Of a stretch of 64,000 bases of DNA, positions 15,972 through 34,510 are shown piece after piece (within the stretch, counting starts at the first letter, position 1; each line of letters begins with the position of its first letter). The notes under the pieces were generated by a model, which was given only the letters and a program-made list of their open reading frames with translations, was not told the DNA's origin and did no database searches. The DNA comes from Escherichia phage Ec_Makalu_001. The stretch is taken from the sequence record MN894885.1, one strand, 5' to 3'. Position numbers and translations under genes: made by a program.

Positions 15972-16792
15972 TTAGTCACCTCACCGAAAATTGTAAATTG
16001 TCTACGATTCTCATCGCCGAAAGATTCTACTACGTCGTTTACCTTGATGCAAGTCCCGCGCGGTAAAATTACTTCACATTCGCAAGGATTCCATGCAATA
16101 GACCCAACAACAAAACCTTTATGATCTTTTACGTCAATTACCCATGATACATTACAAGAATGTTGCATCTTTCCGGTCATTGATTCATATCGATTCTCAC
16201 AATAAAGGCTAGTGCTGTTTGAAAGCCATCCTCCAAAGATGATCGGTGTCATGCTGGTCGATACAAAGTTTTTAAAGGTAAATTCCTTATCTTCAATAAT
16301 ACGCTCTATTGTCTGAATGTCAAGATGTTGACCGCGATAAAGAGTACCGTTTAACTTTTCGGTTTTATCCATGACACAATCCATCAAATCGACAATCTCT
16401 GATATCTCATCGGTCATGTCTTCTTCCCCTAAGAGAGCACCATTTACCCATTCGTATTGTTCAGACACATAATCGCAGATTGCATTATATTCTGCTGGGG
16501 TTATGTTGTTATGTTTGTAATGTTTGAATACATTATCTCCAAAATCTTCGGAATGTACTTCATACATCACATTAATGATTTTCTTGACAAATCCATAATC
16601 TTGCGTTTCTCGCTCAAGGAAACGGATAACTTTCACGTAATCATCAAAGTTAATATGATCGCTGATCATTTCAGTGATCATGTAACCATTAATCCCCTCA
16701 ATGCCATATGTTTCGATGTAATTATCCATACGTTCCATCATTGATTCGCGTGATTCTTCTGAAAGGCGAAAATCCTGTAATTTCTTGAACAT
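15968..16792 (-). CDS. ADP-ribosyltransferase, Alt/Mod-like paralogue
   Basis: 274 aa; ART catalytic signature: YRG (Arg), FVSTS (STS motif), ECEVILPRG (ExE) in correct order. Confidence 0.6.
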   Translation of the reverse strand: MFKKLQDFRLSEESRESMMERMDNYIETYGIEGINGYMITEMISDHINFDDYVKVIRFLERETQDYGFVKKIINVMYEVHSEDFGDNVFKHYKHNNITPAEYNAICDYVSEQYEWVNGALLGEEDMTDEISEIVDLMDCVMDKTEKLNGTLYRGQHLDIQTIERIIEDKEFTFKNFVSTSMTPIIFGGWLSNSTSLYCENRYESMTGKMQHSCNVSWVIDVKDHKGFVVGSIAWNPCECEVILPRGTCIKVNDVVESFGDENRRQFTIFGEVTK

Positions 16793-16816
16793 TTTAAACC
16801 TCCCATATAACAGAAA

Positions 16817-16843
16817 ACGGGGCTAGTATAAAACTAGTCCCCG
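16817..16843. other. Perfect 11-bp stem-loop between the two ADP-ribosyltransferase genes
   Basis: acggggctagt-ataaa-actagtccccgt read directly; weak U-run, so a processing site is as plausible as a terminator. Confidence 0.4.
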
Positions 16844-16871
16844 TTTGAGTCAACCATTATTTCTTAAAAAA

Positions 16872-18923
16872 TTACATTTTAAATTTATCCGGCATAGCGT
16901 CTACAGACACAAGATCAGCGATAAGCTGACGTAGAGTTGCCTTATCTGCTTTCTTACGTTCGGTTTTAGCTTCGGTAATGAAGCTGGAGAAAGACAGGTC
17001 AGAAGCAGGTTTAACAACACCTTCACGGATGAATGCATCACCGTCCGCGATCATCTCACCAGATTCTTGTAATGCTGCCAGTTCATTTTTGTTCATAATA
17101 TGTGCCTCGATGTAATAAGTTTCTTGTGAATCCGTCGATGCCGTAGCACGAGTTACCGTATCAAAGGATAACACAACACCGCGAGGAAGTAAAATCTCGC
17201 ATTCTTTGTAAGCAAATGCTTTGTTACCTACTGGCAATACAGGGATGTTTTCCGCGCCAGCAATGGAGAAAGCAACATTAGCGCCACCTTCACCGCGAGA
17301 TCCAGCCATAGAATCAACACCAGCAACGGCACTAGCCACGTTTGCATTCCATCCACCAAAAATATTAGGTGCAAGGGAAGTGCTCACATAGTTTTTAAAG
17401 TAAAACGCTTTTTGCTTACGTGCAGTTTCCCACATTTGAGAACGGAAGTCCATACCACGATACAAGATAGTACCTGGATCAAGTTTAACACCATAGTTAG
17501 CAAATGCGTTATCCAGTGCATCACACATCTTGACCAATTCTTCTGGGTCTGCGATGCCTTCAAACTCTTCCAGCTTACGGTCGGTTAGGAAGTTGTTCAT
17601 ATTGATGTATGCTGCATCCGCATATTCGCTCAACACAAAACCTTCCGCGCCAGGCAGATCAAGATCAATATCTGCCATCATTTCACCCATGTTGCTAGCA
17701 ATTGCTTCAAACATACCGGAAGCAACATTACGCAGGGCATCGGTTTTAATCTGCGTGATGTGACTACGCAGCATTTCAGCTTTTACATCTGCTGGCATAG
17801 ACTGGTCGACGCGATCCATTGCTAGGGCGGTGATCTTGTTTTCAAACACTTCTTCATTCATGATTTCTTTTAAGCGTTTGATTGATGCTGCGATAACTTC
17901 CGCAGACAACGGATCATATTGATCCTGAACTTTTACCAGTTCGCTTACTGCGTATTTTGCATCGGCTTCGCTTTCAAAAATAGTACGCATGAAACCATAG
18001 CGAGTGATAATATCACTTGTCCAGTCATTCAGAGAACGGGCGGTTGAACGTTCTAAGGCTTGACGGTCAATCAGAGTATTAAACTGTTTCTTAGGTTCTG
18101 CTTCGGTGATATCTTCTTCCGGTTTAAGATTAATTTTTTCTGGATGATTCACATAGTCGCTGTTATAGGTCGCTTGAGTTTTCAGCATTTCTTCTTTAGT
18201 CAAACGAGATTTAGCCGCTACGCGTTGTTCTGCTTCCGCGTTTCGTTCTTCTTCTGACACAAGACTAGCCGCATACGCCTCATCTTTAGTCAGAGATTCA
18301 CCAGTAGCCTTAGATACCCAGCGATCACCTAAATCACTTTCTACTTTAGTGAACAGGGATTCATCGAGTTTAATCCCTTTAATCTTATCAATCGCCATCC
18401 CGCGACGTTTGACAACAACTAAAGCGATCTTTTTGCTGGTCATTACTTCCTGCTGGAATACTTCAAACTTCGGTGTACGACGCACCAAACGCTCTATAAC
18501 GCGCTTAACCAGTTCGGTCTTACCTTTCATGCGGGATACGTTAAAACGGAACATAACAGCGTCTAATTGCGCTTTACGGGCTGTTTCCATAACCACATCA
18601 AAAGCACTTGACATAACTGCAATTGGGTTATCTCCTAGACCATTTTTAAGCTGTACAATACGACCGCTTTTGTTCATTTCGCACAGTACAACATGTGCGG
18701 TCTTGTCACCCATACGAATGATTTTAGGTGTTTTGTTGGTGAAGTTACAAAGACGGACAATCACATCTTTATCGCGTGTCTGTACTGCAAAAAGCTGTTT
18801 AGGATTCTGCTTAGGCTTTAAGCACTGTACCGGAGCAATACTGCCAAAGTTTTCTTCCTCTTCCGTCAACAGCCATTTCTCGAAAGATTCAATCATTAGA
18901 TCGTCGATTTCTAAGTTAAACAT
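16872..18923 (-). CDS. alt: Alt ADP-ribosyltransferase (head-packaged)
   Basis: 683 aa (T4 Alt is 682 aa); C-terminal ART signature ILYRG, YVSTS, ECEILLPRG; synteny after gene 54. Confidence 0.75.
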   Translation of the reverse strand: MFNLEIDDLMIESFEKWLLTEEEENFGSIAPVQCLKPKQNPKQLFAVQTRDKDVIVRLCNFTNKTPKIIRMGDKTAHVVLCEMNKSGRIVQLKNGLGDNPIAVMSSAFDVVMETARKAQLDAVMFRFNVSRMKGKTELVKRVIERLVRRTPKFEVFQQEVMTSKKIALVVVKRRGMAIDKIKGIKLDESLFTKVESDLGDRWVSKATGESLTKDEAYAASLVSEEERNAEAEQRVAAKSRLTKEEMLKTQATYNSDYVNHPEKINLKPEEDITEAEPKKQFNTLIDRQALERSTARSLNDWTSDIITRYGFMRTIFESEADAKYAVSELVKVQDQYDPLSAEVIAASIKRLKEIMNEEVFENKITALAMDRVDQSMPADVKAEMLRSHITQIKTDALRNVASGMFEAIASNMGEMMADIDLDLPGAEGFVLSEYADAAYINMNNFLTDRKLEEFEGIADPEELVKMCDALDNAFANYGVKLDPGTILYRGMDFRSQMWETARKQKAFYFKNYVSTSLAPNIFGGWNANVASAVAGVDSMAGSRGEGGANVAFSIAGAENIPVLPVGNKAFAYKECEILLPRGVVLSFDTVTRATASTDSQETYYIEAHIMNKNELAALQESGEMIADGDAFIREGVVKPASDLSFSSFITEAKTERKKADKATLRQLIADLVSVDAMPDKFKM

Positions 18924-18964
18924 TTTATATCCTCTAGTTGATAACCTATAAACCTATATTTATG

Positions 18965-18985
18965 AAAAAGGGGCTTAACGCCCCC
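18965..18985 (-). terminator. Rho-independent terminator (minus strand); same hairpin recurs at 22987-23006
   Basis: Hairpin ggggc-gttaa-gcccc followed by U-run on minus strand. Confidence 0.5.
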
Positions 18986-18990
18986 ATTTA

Positions 18991-19203
18991 TTATAATGCA
19001 CCATCGAGCAATTGCTCTAAGGTGTATCCTGAATAGTCTTTTTCAATCAGGATATATTTTCCTACTCGTTTAATACAACCGCGCATTTCAACGTATTCTG
19101 CGTAGTTGATGGTGCGAGTTGTTCCATCTTCTAGTAAAGCAGTACCGATTTCGTTAATGCGGTCATAAGTTACGTCGGTAATGATGATTTCGATGTTAGC
19201 CAT
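18991..19203 (-). CDS. Hypothetical small protein (70 aa)
   Basis: ORF preceded by cassette promoter and GGAG RBS. Confidence 0.45.
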   Translation of the reverse strand: MANIEIIITDVTYDRINEIGTALLEDGTTRTINYAEYVEMRGCIKRVGKYILIEKDYSGYTLEQLLDGAL

Positions 19204-19239
19204 TTGATACTCCTTAGTAGTTCGTTTCGGTATGGGTGT

Positions 19240-19268
19240 ATTATGATATACACCCTCTGTTATGTCAA
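19240..19268 (-). promoter_or_regulatory. Sigma70-like early promoter (PeSL-type cassette)
   Basis: Minus strand: TTGACA, 17-bp spacer, CATAAT; conserved leader with GGAG RBS follows. Confidence 0.55.
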
Positions 19269-19274
19269 CAACTT

Positions 19275-19453
19275 TTAGAACATTTTTGAAATTAATTCTG
19301 CTTTGATTTCGCAGAGAACATCTAAAGATTTCTCGTCACCCGCTTTTGCTGCTTCTGCTTGCATTTTTGAAATGGCTTCAATGTCAGTGCAATTATAAGC
19401 CGCTTGAACTTTAGCGATTGCGATGATTGCCGATTCGATGGTTAAGTGTTTCA
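19275..19453 (-). CDS. Small protein (58 aa), not in supplied ORF track
   Basis: Own translation MKHLTIESAIIAIAKVQAAYNCTDIEA...; preceded by cassette promoter and GGAGAATCAAAC leader. Confidence 0.4.
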
Positions 19454-19486
19454 TGTTTGATTCTCCTTTCGTTTCGGTATGTGTGC

Positions 19487-19515
19487 AGTACAGGGGATCG
19501 CCGATCCCCTGTCAA
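19487..19515 (-). promoter_or_regulatory. Sigma70-like early promoter with palindromic GATC-containing spacer
   Basis: Minus strand: TTGACA, spacer GGGGATCGGCGATCCCC (17 bp, inverted repeat, two GATC), -10-like hexamer. Confidence 0.5.
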
Positions 19516-19522
19516 CAACTTT

Positions 19523-20041
19523 TTAGTTATTTTTTAATTGCTCATCTTGCAATAGGGCAATCACATGCTGGCGATGTTCTTCCGATTGAGGAACACCGAA
19601 AAAGTTTGTTTTGTAGAAATACTCTAATCGGTCTTCTCGTGTGCTCTCTTCCATCATGATCGCGGGTAGTCCGAGATTTCGGAAACGTCGCTTTTCTGCT
19701 GGCGTAAAATCACTGTAATACAACATAGAATCATCATTACCAGCAATGCTAAACTCATCCTTCATAAAGGAGAATATTGCGTTTAAACGCTGTTTACCGT
19801 CCACGATTTCGATCTCATAGCGAGAGCCATCATCAATCTTAGCCATTGCGATAGCACCAACCGGAAAATCATTAATCAGGTTTTCGATAAACATACGTTT
19901 GTTTTCGGTGTCCCATACCAAAGGACGCTGATAATCTGGGTTCATGTTGATATAGCCATCTTCTAACCACGCCTCATAAACAGAGATGACAAAGTTTTTA
20001 GTATTGGTATAGTAACGGCGTTTAGGCGTTAAACGGTTCAT
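19523..20041 (-). CDS. DUF262 / ParB-like nuclease-domain protein
   Basis: About 172 aa from the internal ATG at 20041 (GGAG RBS; the longer track ORF to 20077 would overlap the upstream gene); motifs DYQRPLVWD and VDGKQRL match the DGQQR signature of the DUF262 ParB/Srx-fold domain; last gene of a coupled 5-gene operon. Confidence 0.5.
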   Translation of the reverse strand: MNRLTPKRRYYTNTKNFVISVYEAWLEDGYINMNPDYQRPLVWDTENKRMFIENLINDFPVGAIAMAKIDDGSRYEIEIVDGKQRLNAIFSFMKDEFSIAGNDDSMLYYSDFTPAEKRRFRNLGLPAIMMEESTREDRLEYFYKTNFFGVPQSEEHRQHVIALLQDEQLKNN

Positions 20042-20042
20042 G

Positions 20043-20375
20043 TTATAGTCTCCTGAATGGATCATCACGTAAATCAATATCTTTTAAGAACTCATCCCAT
20101 GAATGGCGGATATTGTTCTTAATTCTCCAGATAAGCGCAGGGATTGAACGCTCTCCCATCTGGAAGTAAGGATCATATGATCCATATGCCCAATATGCTA
20201 CTACAATTCCACAATCGGCGCAATAATATTCTATTTCACTTGCTGGCGACCAAAGTCCATCAATATGATCACGGATCTTGCTTTCGATGTTATGGCTATG
20301 GCAATCAGGGCAACGGATGCAATGACCTTGTTTATCGTAATTTGACGTTAGCGAATACTTAAACAATCTCATCAT
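20043..20375 (-). CDS. Zinc-ribbon protein
   Basis: 110 aa; CIRCPDCHSH and YYCADCG Cys clusters; ATGA overlap with upstream gene. Confidence 0.45.
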   Translation of the reverse strand: MMRLFKYSLTSNYDKQGHCIRCPDCHSHNIESKIRDHIDGLWSPASEIEYYCADCGIVVAYWAYGSYDPYFQMGERSIPALIWRIKNNIRHSWDEFLKDIDLRDDPFRRL

Positions 20376-21088
20376 AGATCCTTATTGGCTTCAAATACTG
20401 CCTTTGCGAATCCTCGCGGGGTAAGTGACCTGATAGTCTTTGTTCTGGTTCCTTTCCCGCCTAGCTTAGAATGCTGTTTACTGTACCCTTTATTAATCTG
20501 CAACGGTTTCTTTTCTGGCATTATAAAGCCTTGTCCGGTCCATAAGCAAGTCTTTTTCGGGTACATATCACGGGCGGCAATATACTCAGGAAACGTAGGA
20601 TGCTTATCATCTTCCGGCAAATAACCGCCATATTCCCACGGATGGAACATGTAATCAGGCTTACGCCACATGCTAGAGATAACGCTTACAGGATTCTCTA
20701 TCATGTAGGGAACTCCTAGCCATTCACCCAAATAAGCGGTTATTTTAGCTGCCCTTACATCATGAACTTGAATTAATGGTCCTTGTTCTCGTTTCTTTCG
20801 TTCAAAGTGCGCAGCGCCACTAACAGCTAAATTGGTGCATGGTGGGAATGCAAAGATAATATCCGGTTTCCCCCATTCAAGGTCCATTGCTCTTTCCAGC
20901 CAATTTAAATCAATCCATGTGTTTACATATGTAATGTTTGGATGTTCAAATCGGGTATTATATTTTTTGTATGTACCGTGGTCGCCATCGTCAGCATTAA
21001 AGCAGATCACCTTATGACCTGCTTTAGCCCATTCTAACCCCATTATCCCCGATCCGTCAAAGTTGCAGAATATTAATTTTTGTTTCAT
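20372..21088 (-). CDS. C5-cytosine methyltransferase-like protein (compact; PPC catalytic motif)
   Basis: 238 aa; motif I-like FCNFDGSGIMG (FxGxG), motif IV-like FAFPPCT (PC catalytic Cys), motif VI-like IENPV (ENV); no obvious target-recognition domain. Confidence 0.4.
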   Translation of the reverse strand: MKQKLIFCNFDGSGIMGLEWAKAGHKVICFNADDGDHGTYKKYNTRFEHPNITYVNTWIDLNWLERAMDLEWGKPDIIFAFPPCTNLAVSGAAHFERKKREQGPLIQVHDVRAAKITAYLGEWLGVPYMIENPVSVISSMWRKPDYMFHPWEYGGYLPEDDKHPTFPEYIAARDMYPKKTCLWTGQGFIMPEKKPLQINKGYSKQHSKLGGKGTRTKTIRSLTPRGFAKAVFEANKDL

Positions 21089-21330
21089 ATACGCCCCTTT
21101 AACCCAACACAGATTTTAGAAGGTTCTTTGCCGTGCCACATTAAGTAAATTCCGTTAATGCGTCCTTGTTTTGTATATGATTCTTTTCTGATCTTCTTAT
21201 AGTGTCGTGCTTCCTCAGCCGATTGTTTAGAATGTCGATCATAAAGGAAGAGGAACAAAGGCCAACCATTAGCGGCCTTAATGCAGTTATTCAAAAATTC
21301 CTTATTTCGTTTAATTAATTTTCTTTTCAC
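21085..21330 (-). CDS. Hypothetical protein (81 aa)
   Basis: ORF translationally coupled on both sides (ATGA overlaps). Confidence 0.4.
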   Translation of the reverse strand: MKRKLIKRNKEFLNNCIKAANGWPLFLFLYDRHSKQSAEEARHYKKIRKESYTKQGRINGIYLMWHGKEPSKICVGLKGRI

Positions 21331-21578
21331 GCTGCCCCCATTGGTTTGATAGTAACAGAATCTAAAAGACCTTTGTTAGCCAGTTCGCGGCAAGTTTTCA
21401 GATCCGCAACTTCCCAGCCAGCCGCAATAAGGTTATCAATGAGGCTGTTAGCAACTTCTTCGCTCATGAAAGAGCACTGTTTGCCGATGGTGTAGCGTAC
21501 ACGCTGTAATTTCAGTTTACGGAAGCCTTTAACGTTCAGGTCTTTAGCGATTTTCTTTGCGGTTTCGATGTTAGCCAT
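21327..21578 (-). CDS. Hypothetical protein (83 aa), first gene of the operon
   Basis: ORF with GGAGAATCAAAC leader and cassette promoter upstream. Confidence 0.45.
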   Translation of the reverse strand: MANIETAKKIAKDLNVKGFRKLKLQRVRYTIGKQCSFMSEEVANSLIDNLIAAGWEVADLKTCRELANKGLLDSVTIKPMGAA

Positions 21579-21618
21579 TGTTTGATTCTCCTAAGTGGTA
21601 TCTCGTCTTGATGGTTGT

Positions 21619-21647
21619 ATTGTAGGGGAGTTATCCTCCCCTGTCAA
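21619..21647 (-). promoter_or_regulatory. Sigma70-like early promoter with palindromic spacer (operon 21578->19523)
   Basis: Minus strand: TTGACA, spacer GGGGAGGATAACTCCCC (17 bp), TACAAT. Confidence 0.5.
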
Positions 21648-21661
21648 CACTTTTTATAAAA

Positions 21662-21829
21662 TTATTTGTTAATTTCTGGTGCGTTGCTAGGATAGTAACC
21701 TTCTTTAACTCCGAGGTATTTCGCAACCATCCCTACAATCTTCTGTGCTACTACAATGTCAAATTTCAGATAATCTTCGCCGTGGGTTTCAATGATATAT
21801 GCTTCACATGCTGCTTTAGTCTCGAACAT
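21662..21829 (-). CDS. Small protein (55 aa), paralogue of 24945..25112; not in supplied ORF track
   Basis: Own translation MFETKAACEAYIIETHGEDYLKFDIVVAQK...; nucleotide sequence ~85% identical to the 24945-25112 copy; cassette promoter upstream. Confidence 0.5.
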   Translation of the reverse strand: MFETKAACEAYIIETHGEDYLKFDIVVAQKIVGMVAKYLGVKEGYYPSNAPEINK

Positions 21830-21862
21830 TTTGATTCTCCTATTTCGTTTCGGTATGTGTGT

Positions 21863-21891
21863 ATTATAGGGGATCTCCCGATCCCCGTCAA
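21863..21891 (-). promoter_or_regulatory. Sigma70-like early promoter with palindromic GATC-containing spacer
   Basis: Minus strand: TTGACG, spacer GGGATCGGGAGATCCCC, TATAAT. Confidence 0.55.
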
Positions 21892-21905
21892 CAACTTTTT
21901 TAAAA

Positions 21906-22187
21906 TTATTCGTGATTAGTTTCGATATTGTGCATTTTGCACCAGTTCAGCCAATCGCCAAGATCTTGATAGTTGATGCTTTTATCTGCTGCCATCGTTT
22001 TTGTCTTGATACCCATATGTGCGTTATGAGTAAGCATTTTTACAGTGAACTCAATTTTATCGCCTTTAGCTTTAACATCAACCAGTTTGGTCCACTGGCT
22101 ACCAGCACCGCGAATGTTCATACCAACGATGTTTCCGATGTATGCTTCTTTGTTGTTCAGGATTTCGGTTGCTTTGATGAATTTCAT
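21906..22187 (-). CDS. Hypothetical protein (93 aa)
   Basis: ORF with cassette promoter and leader. Confidence 0.45.
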   Translation of the reverse strand: MKFIKATEILNNKEAYIGNIVGMNIRGAGSQWTKLVDVKAKGDKIEFTVKMLTHNAHMGIKTKTMAADKSINYQDLGDWLNWCKMHNIETNHE

Positions 22188-22220
22188 TTTTGATTCTCCA
22201 GTTCGTTTCGGTATGGGTGT

Positions 22221-22249
22221 ATTATGCTATGTTCTTACTTTGGTGTCAA
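22221..22249 (-). promoter_or_regulatory. Sigma70-like early promoter (cassette)
   Basis: Minus strand: TTGACA, 17 bp, CATAAT. Confidence 0.5.
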
Positions 22250-22257
22250 CAACTTTT

Positions 22258-22527
22258 TTAGATATTTTCAGAAATAAATTTTAAAACTTGACGTAAATGT
22301 TTCTCATCTTTGATAGTCGCCGGAAGTTCTTCTTTTACTTCCTGTGCAAGATAGATATTTCCGTTCCAAGTGAAAGACCCGTCTTCGTTTACGCGATAGC
22401 TGAACATCCATTCGCAATCATTTTCGATTTCATATACACACAGAAGGGTGTAATCTTCAAAGCTATTGATTTCAAGGTCGAAGCCGTGGCGTTTTGCAAA
22501 GTTGGTAGTGGTTTTAGTCAGTGCCAT
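22258..22527 (-). CDS. Hypothetical protein (89 aa)
   Basis: ORF with cassette promoter and leader. Confidence 0.45.
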   Translation of the reverse strand: MALTKTTTNFAKRHGFDLEINSFEDYTLLCVYEIENDCEWMFSYRVNEDGSFTWNGNIYLAQEVKEELPATIKDEKHLRQVLKFISENI

Positions 22528-22567
22528 TGTTTGATTCTCCTAAGTGGTATCTCGTTTCGATGGGTGT

Positions 22568-22596
22568 ATTATGCTATAGGCGTGATCAGGTGTCAA
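22568..22596 (-). promoter_or_regulatory. Sigma70-like early promoter (cassette)
   Basis: Minus strand: TTGACA, 17 bp, CATAAT. Confidence 0.5.
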
Positions 22597-22621
22597 TGCC
22601 TTTTTTAAAATTTTATGCAAT

Positions 22622-22645
22622 AAAAAAGCCGACACTAAGGTCGGC
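22622..22645 (-). terminator. Rho-independent terminator (minus strand)
   Basis: Hairpin gccgacc-ttagt-gtcggc followed by UUUUUU on the minus strand. Confidence 0.55.
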
Positions 22646-22653
22646 TAATAAAA

Positions 22654-22962
22654 TCATTTAGGCAAATAATCATTCAGTGCAATCCGGTCGGCATGTTCCG
22701 GCGTTACATCAATCGCAATCACTTTAACGCGTGCTTTCTTGCGACCTGGGTTTTCTCGTAACCAGTGCTCATGACCGTGAACATTTTTATACTGCGATGC
22801 TTCTTCGAAGGTACGGATCGGACCAGGGTAATCAGCGTAAAGGATCTCTAGGTCATCGGTGATGTAAAAATATACGTTGTAATTACTGTTCTCTAGCTTA
22901 AGCAGAGACTTTCGGAACATTGGGAGATTTTCGCGGGTAAATTCAAAAGTAATATCTTTCAT
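22654..22962 (-). CDS. Paralogue family A member 1 (HxHW...AIDV motif protein)
   Basis: About 102 aa from the internal ATG at 22962 (GAGGA RBS); motifs YFYITDDLEILYADY, HGHEHW, KVIAIDV shared with five neighbouring ORFs. Confidence 0.5.
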   Translation of the reverse strand: MKDITFEFTRENLPMFRKSLLKLENSNYNVYFYITDDLEILYADYPGPIRTFEEASQYKNVHGHEHWLRENPGRKKARVKVIAIDVTPEHADRIALNDYLPK

Positions 22963-22986
22963 AGTATTATCCTCAATAGTTGGATG

Positions 22987-23006
22987 AAAAGGGGGCTTAA
23001 CGCCCC
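22987..23006 (-). terminator. Rho-independent terminator (minus strand), duplicate of the 18965-18985 hairpin
   Basis: Same ggggcgttaagcccc hairpin plus U-run. Confidence 0.45.
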
Positions 23007-23011
23007 ATATA

Positions 23012-23299
23012 TTAAAACAGTCCTTCCTGTACACCGTAGTAGAGTTCGTCGCTGATAATTTCATTAATGCGACGGTGTGCATATTCCTGATTTGCGAAGT
23101 TGTCAGCAAGTTCTACTTTAGTTTCACCGTCATGAGTCCATTTAGTGATAACTTTACCATCTGCAAATTTGAAGTTGAACTCTTTAGCTACTGCATCGCG
23201 TACCAGACGTGCGAACTTGTTGTTACGGATTGCATTATCGGTTTCGTGTGCAGCGTGAGCAAATTTGTTAACTTTCAGAGTGATAGTGATGTATGCCAT
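23012..23299 (-). CDS. Paralogue family B member 1
   Basis: 95 aa; region NAIRNNKFARLVRDAVAKEF shared with 26330..26641 (NAILIREVRKALAKEF). Confidence 0.45.
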   Translation of the reverse strand: MAYITITLKVNKFAHAAHETDNAIRNNKFARLVRDAVAKEFNFKFADGKVITKWTHDGETKVELADNFANQEYAHRRINEIISDELYYGVQEGLF

Positions 23300-23344
23300 A
23301 ATTTGATTCTCCTAGTTAGAAAGTGTATCTCGTTTCGATGGGTG

Positions 23345-23373
23345 TATTATGCTATACACCCGATCTTATGTCA
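23345..23373 (-). promoter_or_regulatory. Sigma70-like early promoter (cassette; palindrome GGGTGTAT/ATACACCC flanks -10)
   Basis: Minus strand: TTGACA, 17 bp, CATAAT. Confidence 0.5.
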
Positions 23374-23382
23374 ACACTTTTT

Positions 23383-23676
23383 TTATAAAATAATTTTTTG
23401 ATATTTTTCTATGATGTTTGTGTAATCCACATCAACCGCTATCACCGTTGCTTCGAATCCACCGTTTAGCCAATGGCTATGGTCATGATCGTGAAAGAAA
23501 CCAAGACCAGTACGAAGACCTTCTTTATATTCGGCGCGTACATTTAGATCATCATCGATAAACAGATAAAACCATGAATTTTTACTAGGATTGATGATAC
23601 AACCTTTCAGATTAGGGAGAATATCACGACTAAGAATAAACTTATCACCTACTTTGAACATAATATTAGTCCTCAC
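23383..23676 (-). CDS. Paralogue family A member 2
   Basis: 97 aa; FYLFIDDDLNVRAEY, HDHDHSHW, VIAVDV. Confidence 0.5.
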   Translation of the reverse strand: MRTNIMFKVGDKFILSRDILPNLKGCIINPSKNSWFYLFIDDDLNVRAEYKEGLRTGLGFFHDHDHSHWLNGGFEATVIAVDVDYTNIIEKYQKIIL

Positions 23677-23989
23677 TTATAAGGTCAAACCAATTGTTTT
23701 TCGCATAATGCTTAATGCGTGCTTGATCTGCTTCCGCTGGTGATAGATTCCATGCAACCACTACAACTTCTGACGCGTCGTCATCCGTTTCTGATACCCA
23801 ATGATTGTGATTCATACAGTTATTTGCGATCGAGTGAGCAAATGATTTCATCACTGGAGACGTATAATCATAGTAACGGATTTTCAGATTTTCATCAACA
23901 TACAAGTAGATCGTATAAGGTTTATATTCAGTAACCAGTAACAGACAGTTACGCAATTCTGGGAAAATCTTTTTAGTTAATTTCATTTT
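23666..23989 (-). CDS. Paralogue family A member 3
   Basis: About 107 aa from the internal ATG at 23989 (GAGGA RBS); YLYVDENLKIRYYDY, NHNHW, VVVVAWN. Confidence 0.45.
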   Translation of the reverse strand, partial: KMKLTKKIFPELRNCLLLVTEYKPYTIYLYVDENLKIRYYDYTSPVMKSFAHSIANNCMNHNHWVSETDDDASEVVVVAWNLSPAEADQARIKHYAKNNWFDLISED

Positions 23990-24206
23990 ATAATCCTCGG
24001 TCGCGGCTATAGTACACGGTACGCCATACAATTTCATGTTTCGTGTCGCTCCAGCACACGATCTCATTTACTCTTAAATCTTTGTTATCAACAAAAGATG
24101 AACATTGTGACGCTTCTTTCATCATTTTATCTGCTGTTTTCTCATCAAATACAGCACAGATTTCTTTATACACTCGATAATCTTTGAATTGACTCTGGAT
24201 ACCCAT
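23988..24206 (-). CDS. Paralogue family C member 2
   Basis: QSQFKDYRVYKEICAVFDEKTADKMMKEASQCSSF shared with 24166..24423; start uncertain (overlaps neighbour). Confidence 0.35.
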   Translation of the reverse strand: MGIQSQFKDYRVYKEICAVFDEKTADKMMKEASQCSSFVDNKDLRVNEIVCWSDTKHEIVWRTVYYSRDRGL

Positions 24207-24423
24207 AATTAACACCATTCCAACCAATTGTTTTTGAGAAAACGTTTATCCACTGTTGAGTGTAGCATGTTTCTTTCCATGATACAATACGAGTAGAATA
24301 ATGGTTTTTGTTTCCAGAAAAGGACGGGCATTTTGATGCATCTTCCATCATCTTTTCGGCGAACTCCGCGTCATATACCCGCAGGATCTGTTGATATGCT
24401 TTATAATCTTTAAATTTGCTCAT
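24166..24423 (-). CDS. Paralogue family C member 1
   Basis: 85 aa; SKFKDYKAYQQILRVYDAEFAEKMMEDASKCPSF. Confidence 0.4.
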   Translation of the reverse strand: MSKFKDYKAYQQILRVYDAEFAEKMMEDASKCPSFSGNKNHYSTRIVSWKETCYTQQWINVFSKTIGWNGVNYGYPESIQRLSSV

Positions 24424-24688
24424 AATTGTTAACTACCTTATCAGCTTCTTTTATTGTTTTTACATCAACTGCGATAATCCGTAAAGGTTCGTCGAAGGTC
24501 CACCAGTGGTCATGAATATCAGCTTGTGATTTATCACCAAAGGAATCACGAATATCATTTTTACATTTATAGCTAATATGGCCTTCATAGTCAACATAAA
24601 GGTAATTATCGAAAATCGGCGTTTTTAAGATCATACCGAAAAATCTTTCTTTGTGTGTCTTATCCAGTGTTGCAGTAATTCGCATCAT
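24410..24688 (-). CDS. Paralogue family A member 4
   Basis: 92 aa; YLYVDYEGHISY, HDHWW, IIAVDV. Confidence 0.5.
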   Translation of the reverse strand: MMRITATLDKTHKERFFGMILKTPIFDNYLYVDYEGHISYKCKNDIRDSFGDKSQADIHDHWWTFDEPLRIIAVDVKTIKEADKVVNNYEQI

Positions 24689-24700
24689 AATATATTCCTC

Positions 24701-24880
24701 TTAGAAAGGGATGGTCATTTCTTGAGCTTGTACATTCTCGTTAGGATTAAACTTCATCCAACCGATATTGTCTACCAGCATATGTACATTTTTATCATAT
24801 CCTACGTGAGTAGTCAACACTAAATGTGCTTTGCCTTCAACGATGATTTCCATGTACTTCTGAACTTCGATAGCTTTCAT
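24701..24880 (-). CDS. Small protein (59 aa), not in supplied ORF track
   Basis: Own translation MKAIEVQKYMEIIVEGKAHLVLTTHVGYDKNVHMLV...; GGAGAATCAAA leader and cassette promoter upstream. Confidence 0.4.
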   Translation of the reverse strand: MKAIEVQKYMEIIVEGKAHLVLTTHVGYDKNVHMLVDNIGWMKFNPNENVQAQEMTIPF

Positions 24881-24912
24881 TTTGATTCTCCGTTTGTTTT
24901 CTTGATGGGAGT

Positions 24913-24941
24913 ATCTTACTACTCCCTTTAATCATTGTCAA
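24913..24941 (-). promoter_or_regulatory. Sigma70-like early promoter (cassette; 20-bp palindrome GGGAGTAGTAAGATACTCCC spans -10)
   Basis: Minus strand: TTGACA, 17 bp, TAAGAT. Confidence 0.45.
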
Positions 24942-24944
24942 CTA

Positions 24945-25112
24945 TTATTTGTTAATTTCTGGTGCGTTGCTCGGATAGTAACCTTCTTTAACACCCAGAT
25001 ATTTTGCAACCATTCCGGTGATCTTCTGTGCTACTACGATATCGAATTTCAGGTAGTCTTCACCGTGGTTTGCTACAATGTATGCTTCGCATTCTGCTTT
25101 AGTCTCGAACAT
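24945..25112 (-). CDS. Small protein (55 aa), paralogue of 21662..21829
   Basis: Track ORF 24945..25178 trimmed to the ATG at 25112, which follows the cassette promoter and RBS; MFETKAECEAYIVANHGEDYLKFDIVVAQK... Confidence 0.5.
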   Translation of the reverse strand: MFETKAECEAYIVANHGEDYLKFDIVVAQKITGMVAKYLGVKEGYYPSNAPEINK

Positions 25113-25146
25113 TTTTGATTCTCCTATATCTCGTTGGTATGTGTGT

Positions 25147-25175
25147 AGTATAGGGGATCTGCGATCCCCTGTCAA
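25147..25175 (-). promoter_or_regulatory. Sigma70-like early promoter with palindromic GATC-containing spacer
   Basis: Minus strand: TTGACA, spacer GGGGATCGCAGATCCCC, TATACT. Confidence 0.55.
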
Positions 25176-25180
25176 CAACT

Positions 25181-25474
25181 TTATAATGCTTTATACGCGT
25201 ATTTCATAAATTTGTCTGCCACTTCATTGGCATGTTCAGATTCTACGCCTGATTCGAGAACAATAGCTAGGTCGGTTTCGTCATTCCCGCCGTACCAATG
25301 ATTTGATGTTCGATTTTTTTCAATTGGAAATTGGTCACTTTTATCTGTGCGACAAAATACATCTAAATGCTCGTCGATGTAAAAGATCCAATCTTCATAA
25401 AGAATAACGGTATTAGCAAGATTTTTATTGCCTTCAACGAAAGGTTCCGCGACAAATAGCTTAGTTTGTTCCAT
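25181..25474 (-). CDS. Paralogue family A member 5
   Basis: About 97 aa from the internal ATG at 25474 (GAGGA RBS); ILYEDWIFYIDEHLDVF, SNHWYGG, AIVLESG. Confidence 0.45.
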   Translation of the reverse strand: MEQTKLFVAEPFVEGNKNLANTVILYEDWIFYIDEHLDVFCRTDKSDQFPIEKNRTSNHWYGGNDETDLAIVLESGVESEHANEVADKFMKYAYKAL

Positions 25475-25490
25475 AGTAATTTCCTCAAAA

Positions 25491-25682
25491 TTATACAGTT
25501 TCGTAAACTTCCCAATGTTCAGCGCCAACACGCTTAACGAAAAGGTTTTCTTTGATGTTATTCATAAACGTCTGGATGGATTTAATGCGGTTTGAAGGTT
25601 TCCATTCTTCGTTGGCATTGCGTCGATACATCATAACATTACCAGTTCGCTTATATTCAGCAACCATTTTAAGACCACACAT
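25491..25682 (-). CDS. Hypothetical small basic protein (63 aa)
   Basis: ORF with GAGGA RBS. Confidence 0.4.
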   Translation of the reverse strand: MCGLKMVAEYKRTGNVMMYRRNANEEWKPSNRIKSIQTFMNNIKENLFVKRVGAEHWEVYETV

Positions 25683-25739
25683 AATATTATCCTCAATTTG
25701 TGGGAGAGTATTACCCCTCCCAATGATTGTTATGTTATA

Positions 25740-26060
25740 TCACACAAAATGGCGTGTCAATGCTTCTTTTGCGGTTCCGCTAAGACTTTCAATCTCGCCT
25801 GGCATAACATCAACCGCCAGAACTTCTACAACATCTTCGGACCCTAACCAGTGAGTATGGCCTTTGTAGAACTTGATAACCAGACCACCTTCCTCGTCCC
25901 ATTTAACGCTATCGCTAGCCCACCACACATCACCGTCGATAAAGTTGATGTAAAGCACACTACGCCACATTGAATTAATTACTTTCAATACTGCGCCTTT
26001 CATCTCTTCCACGGTATGGTCTTCCATTTTGAAGACCTCACCTACCTGAACTTTTGCCAT
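25740..26060 (-). CDS. Paralogue family A member 6
   Basis: 106 aa; LYINFIDGDVWW, KGHTHW, VLAVDV. Confidence 0.5.
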   Translation of the reverse strand: MAKVQVGEVFKMEDHTVEEMKGAVLKVINSMWRSVLYINFIDGDVWWASDSVKWDEEGGLVIKFYKGHTHWLGSEDVVEVLAVDVMPGEIESLSGTAKEALTRHFV

Positions 26061-26077
26061 TTAGTCACCTCTCTTTA

Positions 26078-26257
26078 TTACATAACAATCACGCCAGCCG
26101 TTGAAAGTTGATGTTTCAACTGAGCATTTTCTGCTACCGTCAAATCAATGATTTCTTGTGACGCTGCAATCATATATCCATTGGTGATATTGTTTTGCAT
26201 CAGTTCAATGGTCTCTTCGTTGTAGCGGATTTTAGCGATGATTTCGTTGAAGTTCAT
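26078..26257 (-). CDS. Small protein (59 aa), not in supplied ORF track
   Basis: Own translation MNFNEIIAKIRYNEETIELMQNNITNGYMIAASQ...; cassette promoter and GGAGAATCAAAC leader. Confidence 0.4.
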   Translation of the reverse strand: MNFNEIIAKIRYNEETIELMQNNITNGYMIAASQEIIDLTVAENAQLKHQLSTAGVIVM

Positions 26258-26291
26258 GTTTGATTCTCCTAGTTCGTTTCGGTATGTGTGT

Positions 26292-26321
26292 ATTATAGGG
26301 GAGTTTAACCTCCCCTGTCAA
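26292..26321 (-). promoter_or_regulatory. Sigma70-like early promoter with palindromic spacer
   Basis: Minus strand: TTGACA, spacer GGGGAGGTTAAACTCCCC (18 bp), TATAAT. Confidence 0.5.
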
Positions 26322-26329
26322 CAACTTTT

Positions 26330-26641
26330 TTAAAGTTTTTCCATGATAACGGTCATAATTACATCTTCTGCGCGAGCGGTCAGATTATCAGCGTCAGTAT
26401 GTGGGCGGTTGGTTGTTACAGAGATAACACCGTTGCGCACTGGTTTGATATTGATATCAAGATGATCCGCGAAACGTTCGCCAGTTACAGAATGAATTTT
26501 GGTGTTAAATTCTTTTGCCAGTGCCTTGCGAACTTCACGAATCAGGATAGCGTTTTTCAGTTGGTTCTCCGCGCTCATGGTCTTCTGAGTGTTCATGGTT
26601 CCGTCGAAGTCAATCATTGGCAGCGTTACGATGTATTTCAT
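26330..26641 (-). CDS. Paralogue family B member 2
   Basis: 103 aa; shares NAILIREVRKALAKEFN region with 23012..23299. Confidence 0.45.
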   Translation of the reverse strand: MKYIVTLPMIDFDGTMNTQKTMSAENQLKNAILIREVRKALAKEFNTKIHSVTGERFADHLDINIKPVRNGVISVTTNRPHTDADNLTARAEDVIMTVIMEKL

Positions 26642-26686
26642 TTTTGATTCTCCGTTTAAGAAAGTGTGTTTCGTTTTGATGTGTGT

Positions 26687-26715
26687 AGTATAGGGGATAC
26701 GTGATCCCCTGTCAA
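26687..26715 (-). promoter_or_regulatory. Sigma70-like early promoter with palindromic GATC-containing spacer
   Basis: Minus strand: TTGACA, spacer GGGGATCACGTATCCCC, TATACT. Confidence 0.55.
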
Positions 26716-26728
26716 CAACTTTTTTGAA

Positions 26729-27205
26729 TTATTTTTCTTGATGCTCGCGCTCGTACTTTTCGAAATAAAATTCTACTGGCTGGTCATGAATTGACAGCAA
26801 GCCAAAGCGTTTAGCCGCTCGCAATCCCATATTGCGCTGAATGTACTTCTGGAAGTTCTCGCGTATACACTTACGCCAGTATTCTAAGCCCATACAGCTT
26901 TTATAAAGATTGCATTGCACACACGCCGGATTCATGTTATCAAGTATATCATGCTCCGGTTTATGCATTCCTACAACCTTATACTTCCACGATCCATCAT
27001 CGTTACGGGCAATGCGACCATTTTCATCATAGACTACTTTTGAGCGTCGTAATACTGGTTTGATGTGGTCTGCGTGCCAGCGATCCCCTAGTTCCTCACC
27101 ACAATAGGCACAACGTCCACCGTATTTCATTTTCAGGATCTGGCGTTGCTCTTTCTTTGACAATTTTTTAGGTTTAGGGGCTTTCGCCCCTTCATTATCA
27201 CACAT
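26729..27205 (-). CDS. HNH endonuclease
   Basis: 158 aa; CAYCGEEL...HADHIKP...N...CVQCN fits the HNH zinc-finger nuclease signature; start overlaps the stop of the DNA ligase gene. Confidence 0.6.
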   Translation of the reverse strand: MCDNEGAKAPKPKKLSKKEQRQILKMKYGGRCAYCGEELGDRWHADHIKPVLRRSKVVYDENGRIARNDDGSWKYKVVGMHKPEHDILDNMNPACVQCNLYKSCMGLEYWRKCIRENFQKYIQRNMGLRAAKRFGLLSIHDQPVEFYFEKYEREHQEK

Positions 27206-28700
27206 CGAATACCTCTTTTACTGTATTTGCAGTGGTCTTGTCGTAGCGAATACGTTTGATGATTGGGAGAAATAAAGAGAACTCCGGTTCATCTTCTTTA
27301 CGTGATTTGCTGCGAATGTACCCGTTGCATGTCATCTCAATGACTTTTCCAATCAGGTTATGACGGTCAGCCCATAACATTTCTCGGTCGAGTTCATTTC
27401 GACGATCGAACGGAATTACACGTTCAATACCATCATCATCTTTTTCGGTTGTGGTGTCGGTCAATCCCGATCCGGTGTTAGTCGTCATTCGTCCGCACGC
27501 ACTACGGACAGTAAAACCGCCTACCTTGTTAGGATCTTTACTATGCGGATATACATCAACAATTTCCGCGTCGAAGTCAATCACTTCTTTAAATTTAACC
27601 TGATCTTTACTGCGACGATCTTCAAATACACCATGTAAATTTTTAAGGATAATACCTTCCAATCCCATGTTTACATAGCGATGATATACTTCGCGAGCTT
27701 CATCGATATTGTTAACTACAGTGTTTTCGATTATCTGAACACGAGGATCGTTAAGTTCTTCAACAATCTGTTTTAGTTCTTCGAATCGATCTTTATATTG
27801 CTTCGTTGCTTTCTCGTTTCCGTAATACACATCACGGTCGATAACATCCCAGACAGTGTAAACAATACATTGGGCTTCTTCTTTTGGAATAGTTCCTTTC
27901 AGTGATTTGTTGAGGATACCATTTCCGGTCTGACGGTCTGCAACAACGGATTCTTTCACTGCTTCCGCTACTGGCGTTAATGGCATTTCCTCTTCTTCAA
28001 ATATCCATGATAGAGTACCATCATAAACGCTCTCAACGAAGTTCTGCGCTGGTGTTTGAGAAAGGGTAGGCATATATACCAACTCACCATCTAAAACAAT
28101 TCCACGGCCTCGTAGACGCTCTAAAACAGCAAACAAATCATCCAGCCCCTGATAGGTATTACCTGAACGGGTATAGATTGCTAATGTTTCTCCGTCAATA
28201 TCAGCCATACCACGAGCGCCATCGCTTTTAAGTTGTGCATACGCCGGATATTTGATATTGGCAATAGTCTTATCAGAACATGACGATGCAAGGTGGCAAG
28301 GTTGCTGAGGAATCAGCTTCTTCCATACCTTGTTTGCGGTGGTAGCGGAACAACCGCATTCCAGATCACGATTCAGGACCATCATTGCAACTTTAGCATC
28401 ATCTTCTGACAAGCAAGTCAGAGTATCGGTAACTAGCTGTAATGCAGCATTACCAGTTACTTGACGCGTGGCAAGTTTATTTTTAAAGACCTGTAATGCA
28501 CCGGATAAAGACAATACAGACGAATAGCGAGACGGTTTATCGTATTTCTTTACGCCAAACGTAACCTGCTTGCAATATGCCAGATAAAAGCATTCTTTCA
28601 GCGTTTCATTGCTTGCAGATTCTTTCAGGATCTTTTCTTTCAGCGATGTTTTGTCAGTGGCTGCAAGCTGATTAATGATATTAAGAATTGACATTTTCAC
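27198..28700 (-). CDS. 30: ATP-dependent DNA ligase gp30
   Basis: 500 aa; adenylation motif KSDGARG (KxDG), IILKN, DAEIVDVYPHSKDPNKVGGF; close to remembered T4 ligase. Confidence 0.88.
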   Translation of the reverse strand: MKMSILNIINQLAATDKTSLKEKILKESASNETLKECFYLAYCKQVTFGVKKYDKPSRYSSVLSLSGALQVFKNKLATRQVTGNAALQLVTDTLTCLSEDDAKVAMMVLNRDLECGCSATTANKVWKKLIPQQPCHLASSCSDKTIANIKYPAYAQLKSDGARGMADIDGETLAIYTRSGNTYQGLDDLFAVLERLRGRGIVLDGELVYMPTLSQTPAQNFVESVYDGTLSWIFEEEEMPLTPVAEAVKESVVADRQTGNGILNKSLKGTIPKEEAQCIVYTVWDVIDRDVYYGNEKATKQYKDRFEELKQIVEELNDPRVQIIENTVVNNIDEAREVYHRYVNMGLEGIILKNLHGVFEDRRSKDQVKFKEVIDFDAEIVDVYPHSKDPNKVGGFTVRSACGRMTTNTGSGLTDTTTEKDDDGIERVIPFDRRNELDREMLWADRHNLIGKVIEMTCNGYIRSKSRKEDEPEFSLFLPIIKRIRYDKTTANTVKEVFDV

Positions 28701-29160
28701 CTCGTTTTGTTAAACGTTCACGAATATCGTTTAGGATACTACAAAATTCCGATTCGGTCAATATGGTCTTTAACGGATCAGTTCCACCTATGCTATGACG
28801 CAATTTCTTATTTCCGGTAGCGAGCAATGCTTTACAAAAATCTGGGTTATTTCGTGCCATCGTAACAAATGCCAGATGTACCAGTCTGTAATAATGCTCA
28901 CTCATTCGATGAATCGGGCGACCCTGAAAATATAGCATGTGATTCTCTATCTTTTCAGTCCTTCCGGTTCTTTTTGCTTTGCAGCCGTGCATCAAAAAGA
29001 TTTCTCTTTGTCTCTGAGGGTTCTTAAATCTTAGCCCCTGTAAAAATCCTTCTGTGCTGTTAATATCGCAACCAAATAGACGGAATGGCCTTTTATTGAA
29101 ATTACTCAACTCGCCAGATGGATAAGGTCCACCCGCATAGATATCAATTTCAGAAGTCAT
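28681..29160 (-). CDS. Hypothetical protein (30.x position)
   Basis: 159 aa ORF coupled to the ligase start; no recognised motif. Confidence 0.45.
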   Translation of the reverse strand: MTSEIDIYAGGPYPSGELSNFNKRPFRLFGCDINSTEGFLQGLRFKNPQRQREIFLMHGCKAKRTGRTEKIENHMLYFQGRPIHRMSEHYYRLVHLAFVTMARNNPDFCKALLATGNKKLRHSIGGTDPLKTILTESEFCSILNDIRERLTKRGENVNS

Positions 29161-29359
29161 TGAAACTAATCTCGCTAATCAGAGAGAACGGATCATAATC
29201 GTCATGAGGAATATCGATAGTAATCGAGTGAGGATTTACCCATACACCAAACTGGTCTTCTTCGGTGAATACTTCGGTATGGATTTCGTGGATGTTTACA
29301 TTCATAGTTTTCATAATAAAAATTCCTTAATAATCAATAACTTACAAAATCATATAGCC

Positions 29360-29386
29360 AAAATATAGGCGGGATTATTTCCCGCC
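29360..29386 (-). terminator. Putative terminator (minus strand) after gene 31
   Basis: Hairpin ggcgggaaataatcccgcc followed by a T-rich run on the minus strand. Confidence 0.4.
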
Positions 29387-29397
29387 GTTTAAACTCA

Positions 29398-29721
29398 TTA
29401 ACCGTAAACTACCACAATATTCTGTTTGTGTGTTACAGTCCATTTCAGGTCGATCTCTTCTTCCTTCTTAACGCCGTTAATAACGTCTGGATGAGGAACT
29501 TTATTCATCTTGCCGTGTGGCAGTAGAACAGTTTTACCCAGCAATTCTTTATCTACAGTTTCACCAATATCAATAATCTTACCTACCAGCGGAATCTCGC
29601 CCATAGTGCGCTTTTGCTCAATAATGATCCCCATAGAGCTTTTTACTTCGGTTCCTGCGCTTTCTGCTTTAGCTTCGATAATTACATAATCACCAAGTGC
29701 TTTAGGAGTTTTAACGGTCAT
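29398..29721 (-). CDS. 31: Co-chaperonin gp31 (GroES-like)
   Basis: 107 aa; GDYVII...GIII...VPHP pattern resembles T4 gp31; synteny. Confidence 0.7.
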   Translation of the reverse strand: MTVKTPKALGDYVIIEAKAESAGTEVKSSMGIIIEQKRTMGEIPLVGKIIDIGETVDKELLGKTVLLPHGKMNKVPHPDVINGVKKEEEIDLKWTVTHKQNIVVVYG

Positions 29722-34111: not shown

Positions 34112-34510
34112 TTAACTTTCCAGAATATCGCGAGCTTCGTTACGCTCCTTGATGATTTTCAGGACAAATTCCAGTTTTTCTTTGTTTAGTGTTCCGTTTT
34201 CCATTGCTTCTTTGACGGTAAACACTCCGCCACCTTGCCCGTATACAGTGACAGTGATTTCACCTAACATCGTGGTATGAAAACCTCCAATTTTCGGTGA
34301 TTCGAAAGAAACAATTACCTCGCGGACAGTATTACCGTCGTTGATTTCTGAGAGGGTAATGTCGTTTTTGTAGGCGGTTGCTTTAACCATACGGATCAAC
34401 ATAGTCTGATCTGGGGAGATGGTCATTTTGTCCATTGCATGTTGCAATGCAGCGTAACCGAAAACTTTAACGAAGTCCAGAACGTCTTTGCGAGTTTGAA
34501 ATTTAATCAT
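34112..34510 (-). CDS. Hypothetical protein (132 aa)
   Basis: ORF with cassette promoter and leader upstream. Confidence 0.45.
   Translation of the reverse strand: MIKFQTRKDVLDFVKVFGYAALQHAMDKMTISPDQTMLIRMVKATAYKNDITLSEINDGNTVREVIVSFESPKIGGFHTTMLGEITVTVYGQGGGVFTVKEAMENGTLNKEKLEFVLKIIKERNEARDILES

Follow-up and report, generated by a model that had tools for sequence, protein, structure and literature searches.

A family of promoter-early stem-loop cassettes in an RB49-like coliphage and its association with accessory-gene gain and loss among relatives

A 64,000-nucleotide stretch of Escherichia phage Ec_Makalu_001 (record MN894885.1; hereafter, the window) carries on its minus strand 25 copies of a repeated regulatory cassette, and these cassettes are the promoter-early stem-loops (PeSLs) already published for RB49-like phages. 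Taken as a whole, it is very probable that the repeats act as early promoters, as attenuators of read-through transcription and as recombination substrates. Because PeSLs were described in 2010 for the same genus and region, our analysis brings no new biology and its value is confirmatory; cassette-to-cassette deletions and chimeric junctions hold with 12 genomes instead of 2, which extends the published description and leaves it unchanged. The broader interest of PeSLs is that they are regulatory repeats doubling as recombination substrates for accessory-gene shuffling in T4-type phages.

The repeat family and its published counterparts

The copies were located with an nhmmer profile built from 18 clear examples and iterated once, which replaced a strict regular expression for promoter, ribosome-binding site (RBS) and ATG that had recovered just 18 of the 25 copies together with unrelated promoters. 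Run on the 64-kb window, the profile returned exactly 25 full-length matches, all on the minus strand and all with E ≤ 6e-9; the next match (E = 0.008) is merely a promoter-like fragment. Eleven copies lie at 19.2-26.7 kb, four at 34.5-35.4 kb, one at 37.6 kb, three at 42.7-44.4 kb and six at 61.7-63.5 kb. Each of the 25 has a -35 hexamer that reads TTGAC followed by A (18 copies), G (six) or T (one), a spacer of 16-18 nt (mostly 17), a -10 hexamer, an A/C-rich leader and a GGAG or GAGG site 3-11 nt before the ATG that opens an open reading frame (ORF) of 49-392 amino acids (aa). The -35 and the ATG are 56-78 nt apart (median 65), and 15 copies contain the exact string GGAGAATCAA. Upstream of the -35 a conserved A-rich block reaches a further ~15-20 nt, ending in most copies in an A-run and (A)GTTG immediately 5' of the hexamer, which gives the whole unit a length of ~75-100 bp; a repeat finder groups the units into families of 70-83 nt. 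In the copies that we read, the stop codon of the upstream gene falls within ~5-20 nt. Two subfamilies stand out, one with a long leader (23297-23389 and 26639-26730) and one with a GAGGAT site (42703-42779, 43088-43162 and 44312-44387).

The original prediction, made from the sequence alone, had described at least 25 minus-strand copies of a single architecture, and both this figure and the locations that it listed, from 19.2-26.7 to 61.7-63.5 kb, agree with all of the profile matches. It had also reported that a leader/RBS string occurs about 16 times on the plus strand. The strong over-representation is real, and the actual count is slightly lower: all 15 occurrences of TTGATTCTCC are on the plus strand, the number expected from dinucleotide shuffles is 0.13, and none of 100 shuffles reached 15. 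The repeat unit itself stands, but not its proposed size of ~60 bp, since conservation continues upstream of the -35. The claim that cassettes flank nearly every small early gene was overstated; between 18951 and 27200 they precede 11 of ~25 genes, the others being arranged in runs of two to five genes without one.

Nine of the 11 copies in 18951-27200 match the sigma-70 consensus at 11-12 of 12 positions, and matches at 11 or more positions number 31 on the minus strand of the window versus one on the plus strand. Consensus promoters as such are not more numerous over the region than in shuffled sequence (34 versus 27.3 expected), and the top-scoring matches alone are informative. About 14 of the high-scoring minus-strand sites lie outside the cassette family, for example at 60713, 48359, 47802, 46212, 40301, 31862, 30858, 16323, 3381 and 1133. 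Scans of the whole window for Rfam families (gathering thresholds) and for tRNAs returned no matches.

The phage is an RB49-like, T4-type coliphage of the genus Krischvirus. Megablast of 18951-27200 matched 63 phage records, all of them RB49-like, with 96-97% identity at full length for several and 99.5% over 90% of the length for Ec_Makalu_003. In annotated relatives this interval runs from alt to gene 30 (DNA ligase) and corresponds to ORF185c-ORF212c of RB49 and ORF185-212 of phi1, the same hyperplastic region in which PeSLs were first defined (Arbiol et al. 2010, Genome Biol Evol 2:140; PMC2839356). As described there, a PeSL combines an AT-rich region, a near-consensus sigma-70 promoter and a stem-loop with a Shine-Dalgarno site and the start codon; the stem-loop can occupy any of five positions, the commonest being the interval from -35 to -10 and the -10 itself. 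Each genome holds ~51-52 PeSLs, most upstream of ORFans (PMC2839356). The RB49 type was later summarised as TTGACA-N17-TATAAT with Gn-loop-Cn stems (Comeau, Arbiol, Krisch 2014; PMC4122927). Individual cassettes can be paired with published elements: 26639-26730 is identical to RB49 PeSL211/210 at 87 of 87 positions, 21827-21906 to RB49 PeSL192/191 at 74 of 75, and 25110-25190 to phi1 PeSL206/205 at 65 of 68 window bases (the phi1 sequence is 70 nt long), with the differences among promoter, stem and leader in this last pair confined to the hairpin loop. The identification as PeSLs made in the original prediction is therefore borne out by genus, region and sequence, although the prediction had overlooked the stem-loop, which is the defining feature.

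Genus, region (ORF185-212), architecture and the cassette-bounded indels between relatives are all shared with the RB49 and phi1 PeSLs, and nothing in the window differs in kind. The arrangement is of the phi1 type, with ORF192 and ORF211 absent, and the loops of the hairpins are a few bases away from the published ones. Our count of 25 is restricted to copies that also have the conserved leader, and the broader published definition would add a few more. Two strong sigma-70-like promoters without that leader, at 25732-25760 and 16790-16853 (both on the minus strand), lie outside the 25; the first has a hairpin GGGAG...CTCCC at ~25700-25720, downstream of its -10, the second has one over its -10 at ~16810-16835, and both would count as PeSLs in the broader sense. 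The PeSLs of T4/PST and KVP40/nt-1 (PMC4122927) have in common with those of the window a composite promoter-terminator logic and an association with hyperplastic regions. Their promoter consensuses, TTTACW...TAYWAT and TTGYVH...TAWWAT, are unlike the near-perfect sigma-70 hexamers found here, and their stems are AGNA/TCNT and A3-4G3/C3T3-4, whereas the window copies, being of the RB49 type, have G-run/C-run stems.

Stem-loops in the promoter core

An internal G/C-rich hairpin of 6-8 bp is present in 17 of the 25 copies, in the spacer in eight of them and across the -10 in nine. The spacer type is exemplified by GGGGATC-nnn-GATCCCC, and the type with the -10 in the loop by GGGAGTA-gtaaga-TACTCCC or GGGTGTAT-agcata-ATACACCC. 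In folding tests against dinucleotide shuffles, z was below -2 for 18 of the 25 promoter segments; 17 of these are the hairpin copies, and the remaining one (44315-44386) was not classed as a discrete hairpin. In four of the eight copies that lack an internal hairpin, a canonical terminator, with its hairpin and T-run, precedes the -35 by 10-30 nt. The two features are mutually exclusive, an upstream terminator accompanying none of the 17 hairpin copies versus four of the eight others (Fisher p = 0.0055), and this provides modest new support for a role of the hairpin at the RNA level. Lying 5' of the start site that its cassette provides, the hairpin can be transcribed from upstream only, and this placement, together with the mutual exclusivity, fits a role on read-through transcripts.

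Comparison of many copies points to pairing as the selected property. The window and 12 relatives together hold 161 cassettes with 85 unique promoter segments, and in 58 of these segments the stem is perfect over at least 6 bp. Since the hairpin subtypes sit in different registers, arm and loop variants were tabulated in place of a column-wise covariation test. The arms come in several differing self-complementary versions, and the arm AGGGGATC alone is combined with five different loops. That the arms differ while pairing is kept and the loops vary is the pattern expected if pairing rather than sequence is selected.

Five of the copies without an internal hairpin (22185-22264, 22525-22611, 35302-35372, 62475-62555 and 63456-63535) keep the 3' arm, ATACACCC or TACTCCC, overlapping the -10/discriminator, and no longer have the 5' arm, which suggests that a hairpin has decayed in them rather than been absent from the outset. 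Canonical terminators, each with a GC hairpin and a T-run, also occur on the minus strand at 18969-18985, 22627-22646 and 22992-23006, two of them with the same stem-loop, GGGGCGTTAAGCCCC.

Two published elements with orthologues in the window, PeSL206/205 and PeSL211/210, have been assayed. The PeSL206/205 promoter gave ~13,000 Miller units, and the PeSL211/210 stem-loop cut lacZ expression in the manner of rrnB T1 (PMC2839356); promoter strength and terminator activity are thus known for these orthologous copies, from the literature. We infer that the A-rich block and the near-consensus -35 and -10 would recruit host sigma-70 RNA polymerase right after infection, providing each ORFan with a strong early promoter of its own. 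The G/C-rich hairpin would be transcribed by read-through polymerases alone, and would attenuate or end their transcripts. The conserved, G-poor and unstructured leader, with its strong GGAG site, would presumably favor efficient translation. A more speculative idea is that the same A/C-rich leader with GGAG could be a target of phage post-transcriptional control, such as early mRNA cleavage of the RegB type.

Recombination between cassettes and competing explanations

We aligned positions 16000-29500 of the window to the homologous stretch of the 12 relatives and chained the alignments. The alt-ligase region shows 11 distinct structural differences, eight of which touch a cassette; with one further event elsewhere, in JSE, the figure becomes nine of 12. 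Of the six simple deletions, five begin in one cassette and end in another, with junction overlaps of 42-107 nt. They remove ORF186 (in PHB13 and JK32), ORF191 (Brandy and JK32), ORF210 (Makalu_003, Makalu_002, AV108, Brandy and JK32), a 1.5-kb block of ORF206-210 of which cassette 25110-25190 is one end (G5211) and, outside the alt-ligase region, the 49-aa ORF226-like gene (JSE; 94-nt overlap). Insertions are found at cassette edges: at 21906, the upstream edge of 21827-21906, RB49 has ORF192 and JSE a different insert; four phages have 406 nt inserted at 22549-22645; and four have ORF211 at 26736, the upstream edge of 26639-26730. One end of a replacement in JSE lies 31 nt from a cassette. 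Relative to a per-base null, in which the cassettes with 35 nt on either side make up 20.5% of bases, breakpoint enrichment is strong (p ~ 3e-4). JSE and JK32 lack the 81-aa gene at 21085-21330 (RB49 ORF189.1-like), and the junction of this deletion has an overlap of only 16 nt and no cassette; some gene-sized indels here do not use cassettes.

The junctions themselves record the exchange. All six junction cassettes examined are chimeric, the A-rich block, -35 and hairpin coming from the upstream copy and the leader and RBS from the downstream copy. At most junctions there is a single switch of source within the shared -10/leader block; the PHB13 ORF186 junction is less clean, two -10 positions already matching the downstream copy. 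Mini-circles have been detected by inverse polymerase chain reaction (PCR) in RB49 and phi1, with the ORFan210 module as a circle-forming unit (PMC2839356); this module is present in the window at 26255-26730 and is naturally missing in five of the 12 relatives, each time with one chimeric cassette remaining. The original prediction had proposed gene shuffling by recombination between cassettes and a comparison of cassette positions with gene-content breakpoints in relatives; that comparison bears the proposal out. At the level of sequence it supports the published recombination model, in which crossovers between cassettes, probably by the phage's homologous recombination machinery, would delete, insert or duplicate whole promoter-plus-gene modules and leave one chimeric cassette behind. 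What would allow such crossovers is the recurrence, at intervals of a few hundred bases and in a single orientation, of 60-100 bp of nearly identical sequence.

Several observations weigh against the combined promoter, attenuator and recombination roles. Searchable literature holds no usable mapping of transcript 5' ends for RB49 or Krischvirus. Four of the 25 copies are without any stem-loop. The internal hairpins have no U-tract, being followed by UAUA(A/C)U or AUC/AUA, and a consensus scan on the gene strand flagged none of them as a terminator, while the same scan flagged three canonical terminators nearby; the evidence for termination is thus a single published assay, made with a hairpin of the spacer type. 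Three or four structural differences fall at gene junctions free of cassettes (including 21087/21314, 25489/25680 and 26058), and when breakpoints are compared with gene junctions of any kind, the enrichment at cassettes is marginal (8 of 11 versus 11 of 25, p = 0.053).

The missing U-tracts, together with the position of the hairpins within the promoter core (spacer or -10), raise the question of whether these hairpins, chiefly those with the -10 in the loop, may be DNA-level elements rather than terminators. A hairpin acting mainly in DNA could extrude as a cruciform that modulates promoter use or that the phage's junction-resolving endonuclease cuts, thereby starting recombination at cassettes, or it could be the operator of a dimeric regulator; the palindrome GGGGATC...GATCCCC recurs in many copies, and one published RB49 mini-circle crossover was placed within the hairpin loop (Arbiol 2010; PMC2839356). 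We regard such a role as unlikely. Arms that differ widely with pairing kept, and loops that are free to vary, argue for conservation of a structure and not of a sequence recognized by a protein; the upstream RNA terminators often found at copies lacking an internal hairpin argue for action on RNA; the chimeric junctions switch in the -10/leader block and not at a fixed point in the stem; and termination was seen in the published reporter assay. Were a DNA-level role nevertheless true, cruciforms would gate promoter use or be cut to start recombination, and the cassettes would be active hot spots rather than passive homology.

The marginal enrichment over gene junctions in general would also fit a view in which the cassettes share no descent, each having arisen by independent selection for a strong sigma-70 promoter and RBS, so that they merely mark gene boundaries and the nearby indels are coincidental. 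The best-conserved parts are indeed the functional ones (-35, -10 and GGAG). However, similarity extends over positions without a known consensus requirement, namely AAAAAGTTG before the -35, ACACACATACCGAAACGAAC in the leader and AATCAA after the GGAG, and the copies form clear subfamilies such as that with the long leader. Independent origins would also leave the two-parent chimeric cassettes at junctions in relatives, the duplicated gene-plus-cassette modules and the published inverse-PCR mini-circles without explanation, and we consider this account very unlikely.

Common descent with exchange by homologous recombination, which we prefer, leaves the question of whether a dedicated site-specific recombinase could use the cassettes as its sites, in the manner of integron attC or of a small transposable element, a possibility left open by Comeau 2014 (PMC4122927). 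Like integron attC cassettes, the modules hold a single gene, are bounded by a foldable hairpin repeat and may form small circles. Unlike them, each window module has its own strong promoter and crossover points vary (loop, AT-rich side, or -10/leader block), whereas integron cassettes are promoterless and depend for their movement on an integrase with a defined crossover point. The cassettes have neither terminal inverted repeats nor target duplications, and their features implicate no dedicated recombinase, although no search was aimed at an integrase in the window.

A mobile element of this kind would also be out of keeping with the distribution of the cassettes. At blastn sensitivity in the phage collection they are found in Krischvirus records only (58 records, ~9 places each); in one of these, GEC-3S, the sites already carry a promoter annotation. 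Neither the cassettes nor the ORF210 module were matched in 5,426 complete Escherichia coli genomes or 72,556 plasmids, and outside GenBank Krischvirus records the hairpin-promoter pattern occurs in two IMG/VR contigs only, one of them 150 kb long. There is thus no support for spread of the module beyond the genus, and we consider involvement of a site-specific recombinase extremely improbable.

Cassette catalogue and neighboring genes

The genes downstream of the cassettes (Table 1) are ORFans, and a Pfam scan assigned a family to none of the ten cassette-driven proteins scanned. Eight of the genes encode fewer than 60 aa, in line with the original prediction that the cassettes expose several real genes of this size. 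The five that lie in 18951-27200 are annotated coding sequences in relatives and are intact in all of their 7-11 distinct alleles (some matches in the ORF191 set are to its paralogue); overall, synonymous-only change predominates among their variable codons, 52 versus 22.

Table 1. The 25 cassettes of the window, all on the minus strand, with the gene that follows each and the features of each copy
Cassette	Downstream gene	Stem-loop and other features
19201-19283	70 aa, 18991-19203	GGGTGTAT/ATACACCC straddling -10 (CATAAT)
19452-19530	59 aa, 19275-19454 (RB49 ORF186-like)	Spacer hairpin GGGGATC-ggc-GATCCCC
21576-21662	83 aa, 21327-21578	Spacer hairpin GGGGAG/CTCCCC
21827-21906	55 aa, 21662-21829 (ORF191-like)	Spacer hairpin GGGGATC/GATCCCC
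22185-22264	93 aa, 21906-22187	No hairpin; 3' arm ATACACCC alone left
22525-22611	89 aa, 22258-22527	No internal hairpin; canonical terminator just upstream, 22646-22627
23297-23389	95 aa, 23012-23299	Long leader; GGGTGTAT/ATACACCC straddling -10
24878-24956	59 aa, 24701-24880	GGGAGTA-gtaaga-TACTCCC, -10 (TAAGAT) in loop
25110-25190	55 aa, 24945-25112 (ORF205-like)	Spacer hairpin GGGGATC-gca-GATCCCC; orthologue of phi1 PeSL206/205
26255-26336	59 aa, 26078-26257 (ORF209-like)	Perfect TTGACA-18-TATAAT; spacer hairpin GGGGAG/CTCCCC; downstream boundary of ORF210 module
26639-26730	103 aa, 26330-26641 (ORFan210)	Long leader; match to RB49 PeSL211/210
34508-34587	132 aa, 34112-34510	GGGAGTA/TACTCCC straddling -10
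34728-34812	49 aa, 34581-34730 (ORF226-like, absent from JSE)	GGGGGTA/TACCCCC, compensated variant of GGGAGTA/TACTCCC
35014-35093	72 aa, 34798-35016	GGGAGT/ACTCCC straddling -10
35302-35372	72 aa, 35086-35304	No internal hairpin; canonical terminator 15 nt upstream of -35; shortest and most divergent copy
37559-37636	55 aa, 37394-37561	Spacer hairpin GCGGGGA-gaaa-TCCCCGC; RBS GAGGA
42703-42779	109 aa, 42376-42705	GAGGAT subtype; no stem-loop
43088-43162	109 aa, 42761-43090	GAGGAT subtype; no stem-loop
44312-44387	392 aa, 43136-44314	GAGGAT subtype; canonical terminator 30 nt upstream of -35
61659-61739	252 aa, 60903-61661	GGGAGTA/TACTCCC straddling -10
61885-61962	51 aa, 61732-61887	Spacer hairpin GGGGATC-ggt-GATCCCC
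62167-62242	70 aa, 61957-62169	GGGAGTA/TACTCCC straddling -10
62475-62555	80 aa, 62235-62477	Decayed hairpin; 3' arm TACTCCC retained, 5' arm gone
63183-63260	90 aa, 62913-63185	GGGAGTA-gtaaaa-TACTCCC straddling -10
63456-63535	68 aa, 63252-63458	No internal hairpin; terminator-like hairpin and T-run just upstream of -35

One 55-aa ORFan is present twice, at 21662-21829 and 24945-25112 (RB49 ORF191- and ORF205-like), with 91% aa identity and 86% nucleotide identity over 172 nt. Separated by 3.3 kb and each placed between two cassettes, the copies look like a duplicated promoter-plus-gene module; a text search of Arbiol 2010 (PMC2839356) found no mention of the pair.

More distant relationships are also visible. 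The cassette-driven genes 34798-35016 and 63252-63458, 28 kb apart in different hyperplastic regions, are distant paralogues (~30-31% identity, E = 2e-4). A diverged paralogous family of ~100 aa comprises 22654-22962, 23383-23661, 23666-23986 and 25740-26060 (25-29% identity, E 1e-12 to 2e-4), and 23988-24206 and 24166-24423 form a tandem pair with 43% identity; neither the family nor the pair has a known function. Three genes without a cassette of their own (19523-20041, 20372-21088 and 26729-27205) have functions recognizable from the annotations of relatives, which name a DUF262-domain protein, a DNA (cytosine-5) methyltransferase and an HNH endonuclease; the endonuclease gene overlaps the start of DNA ligase.

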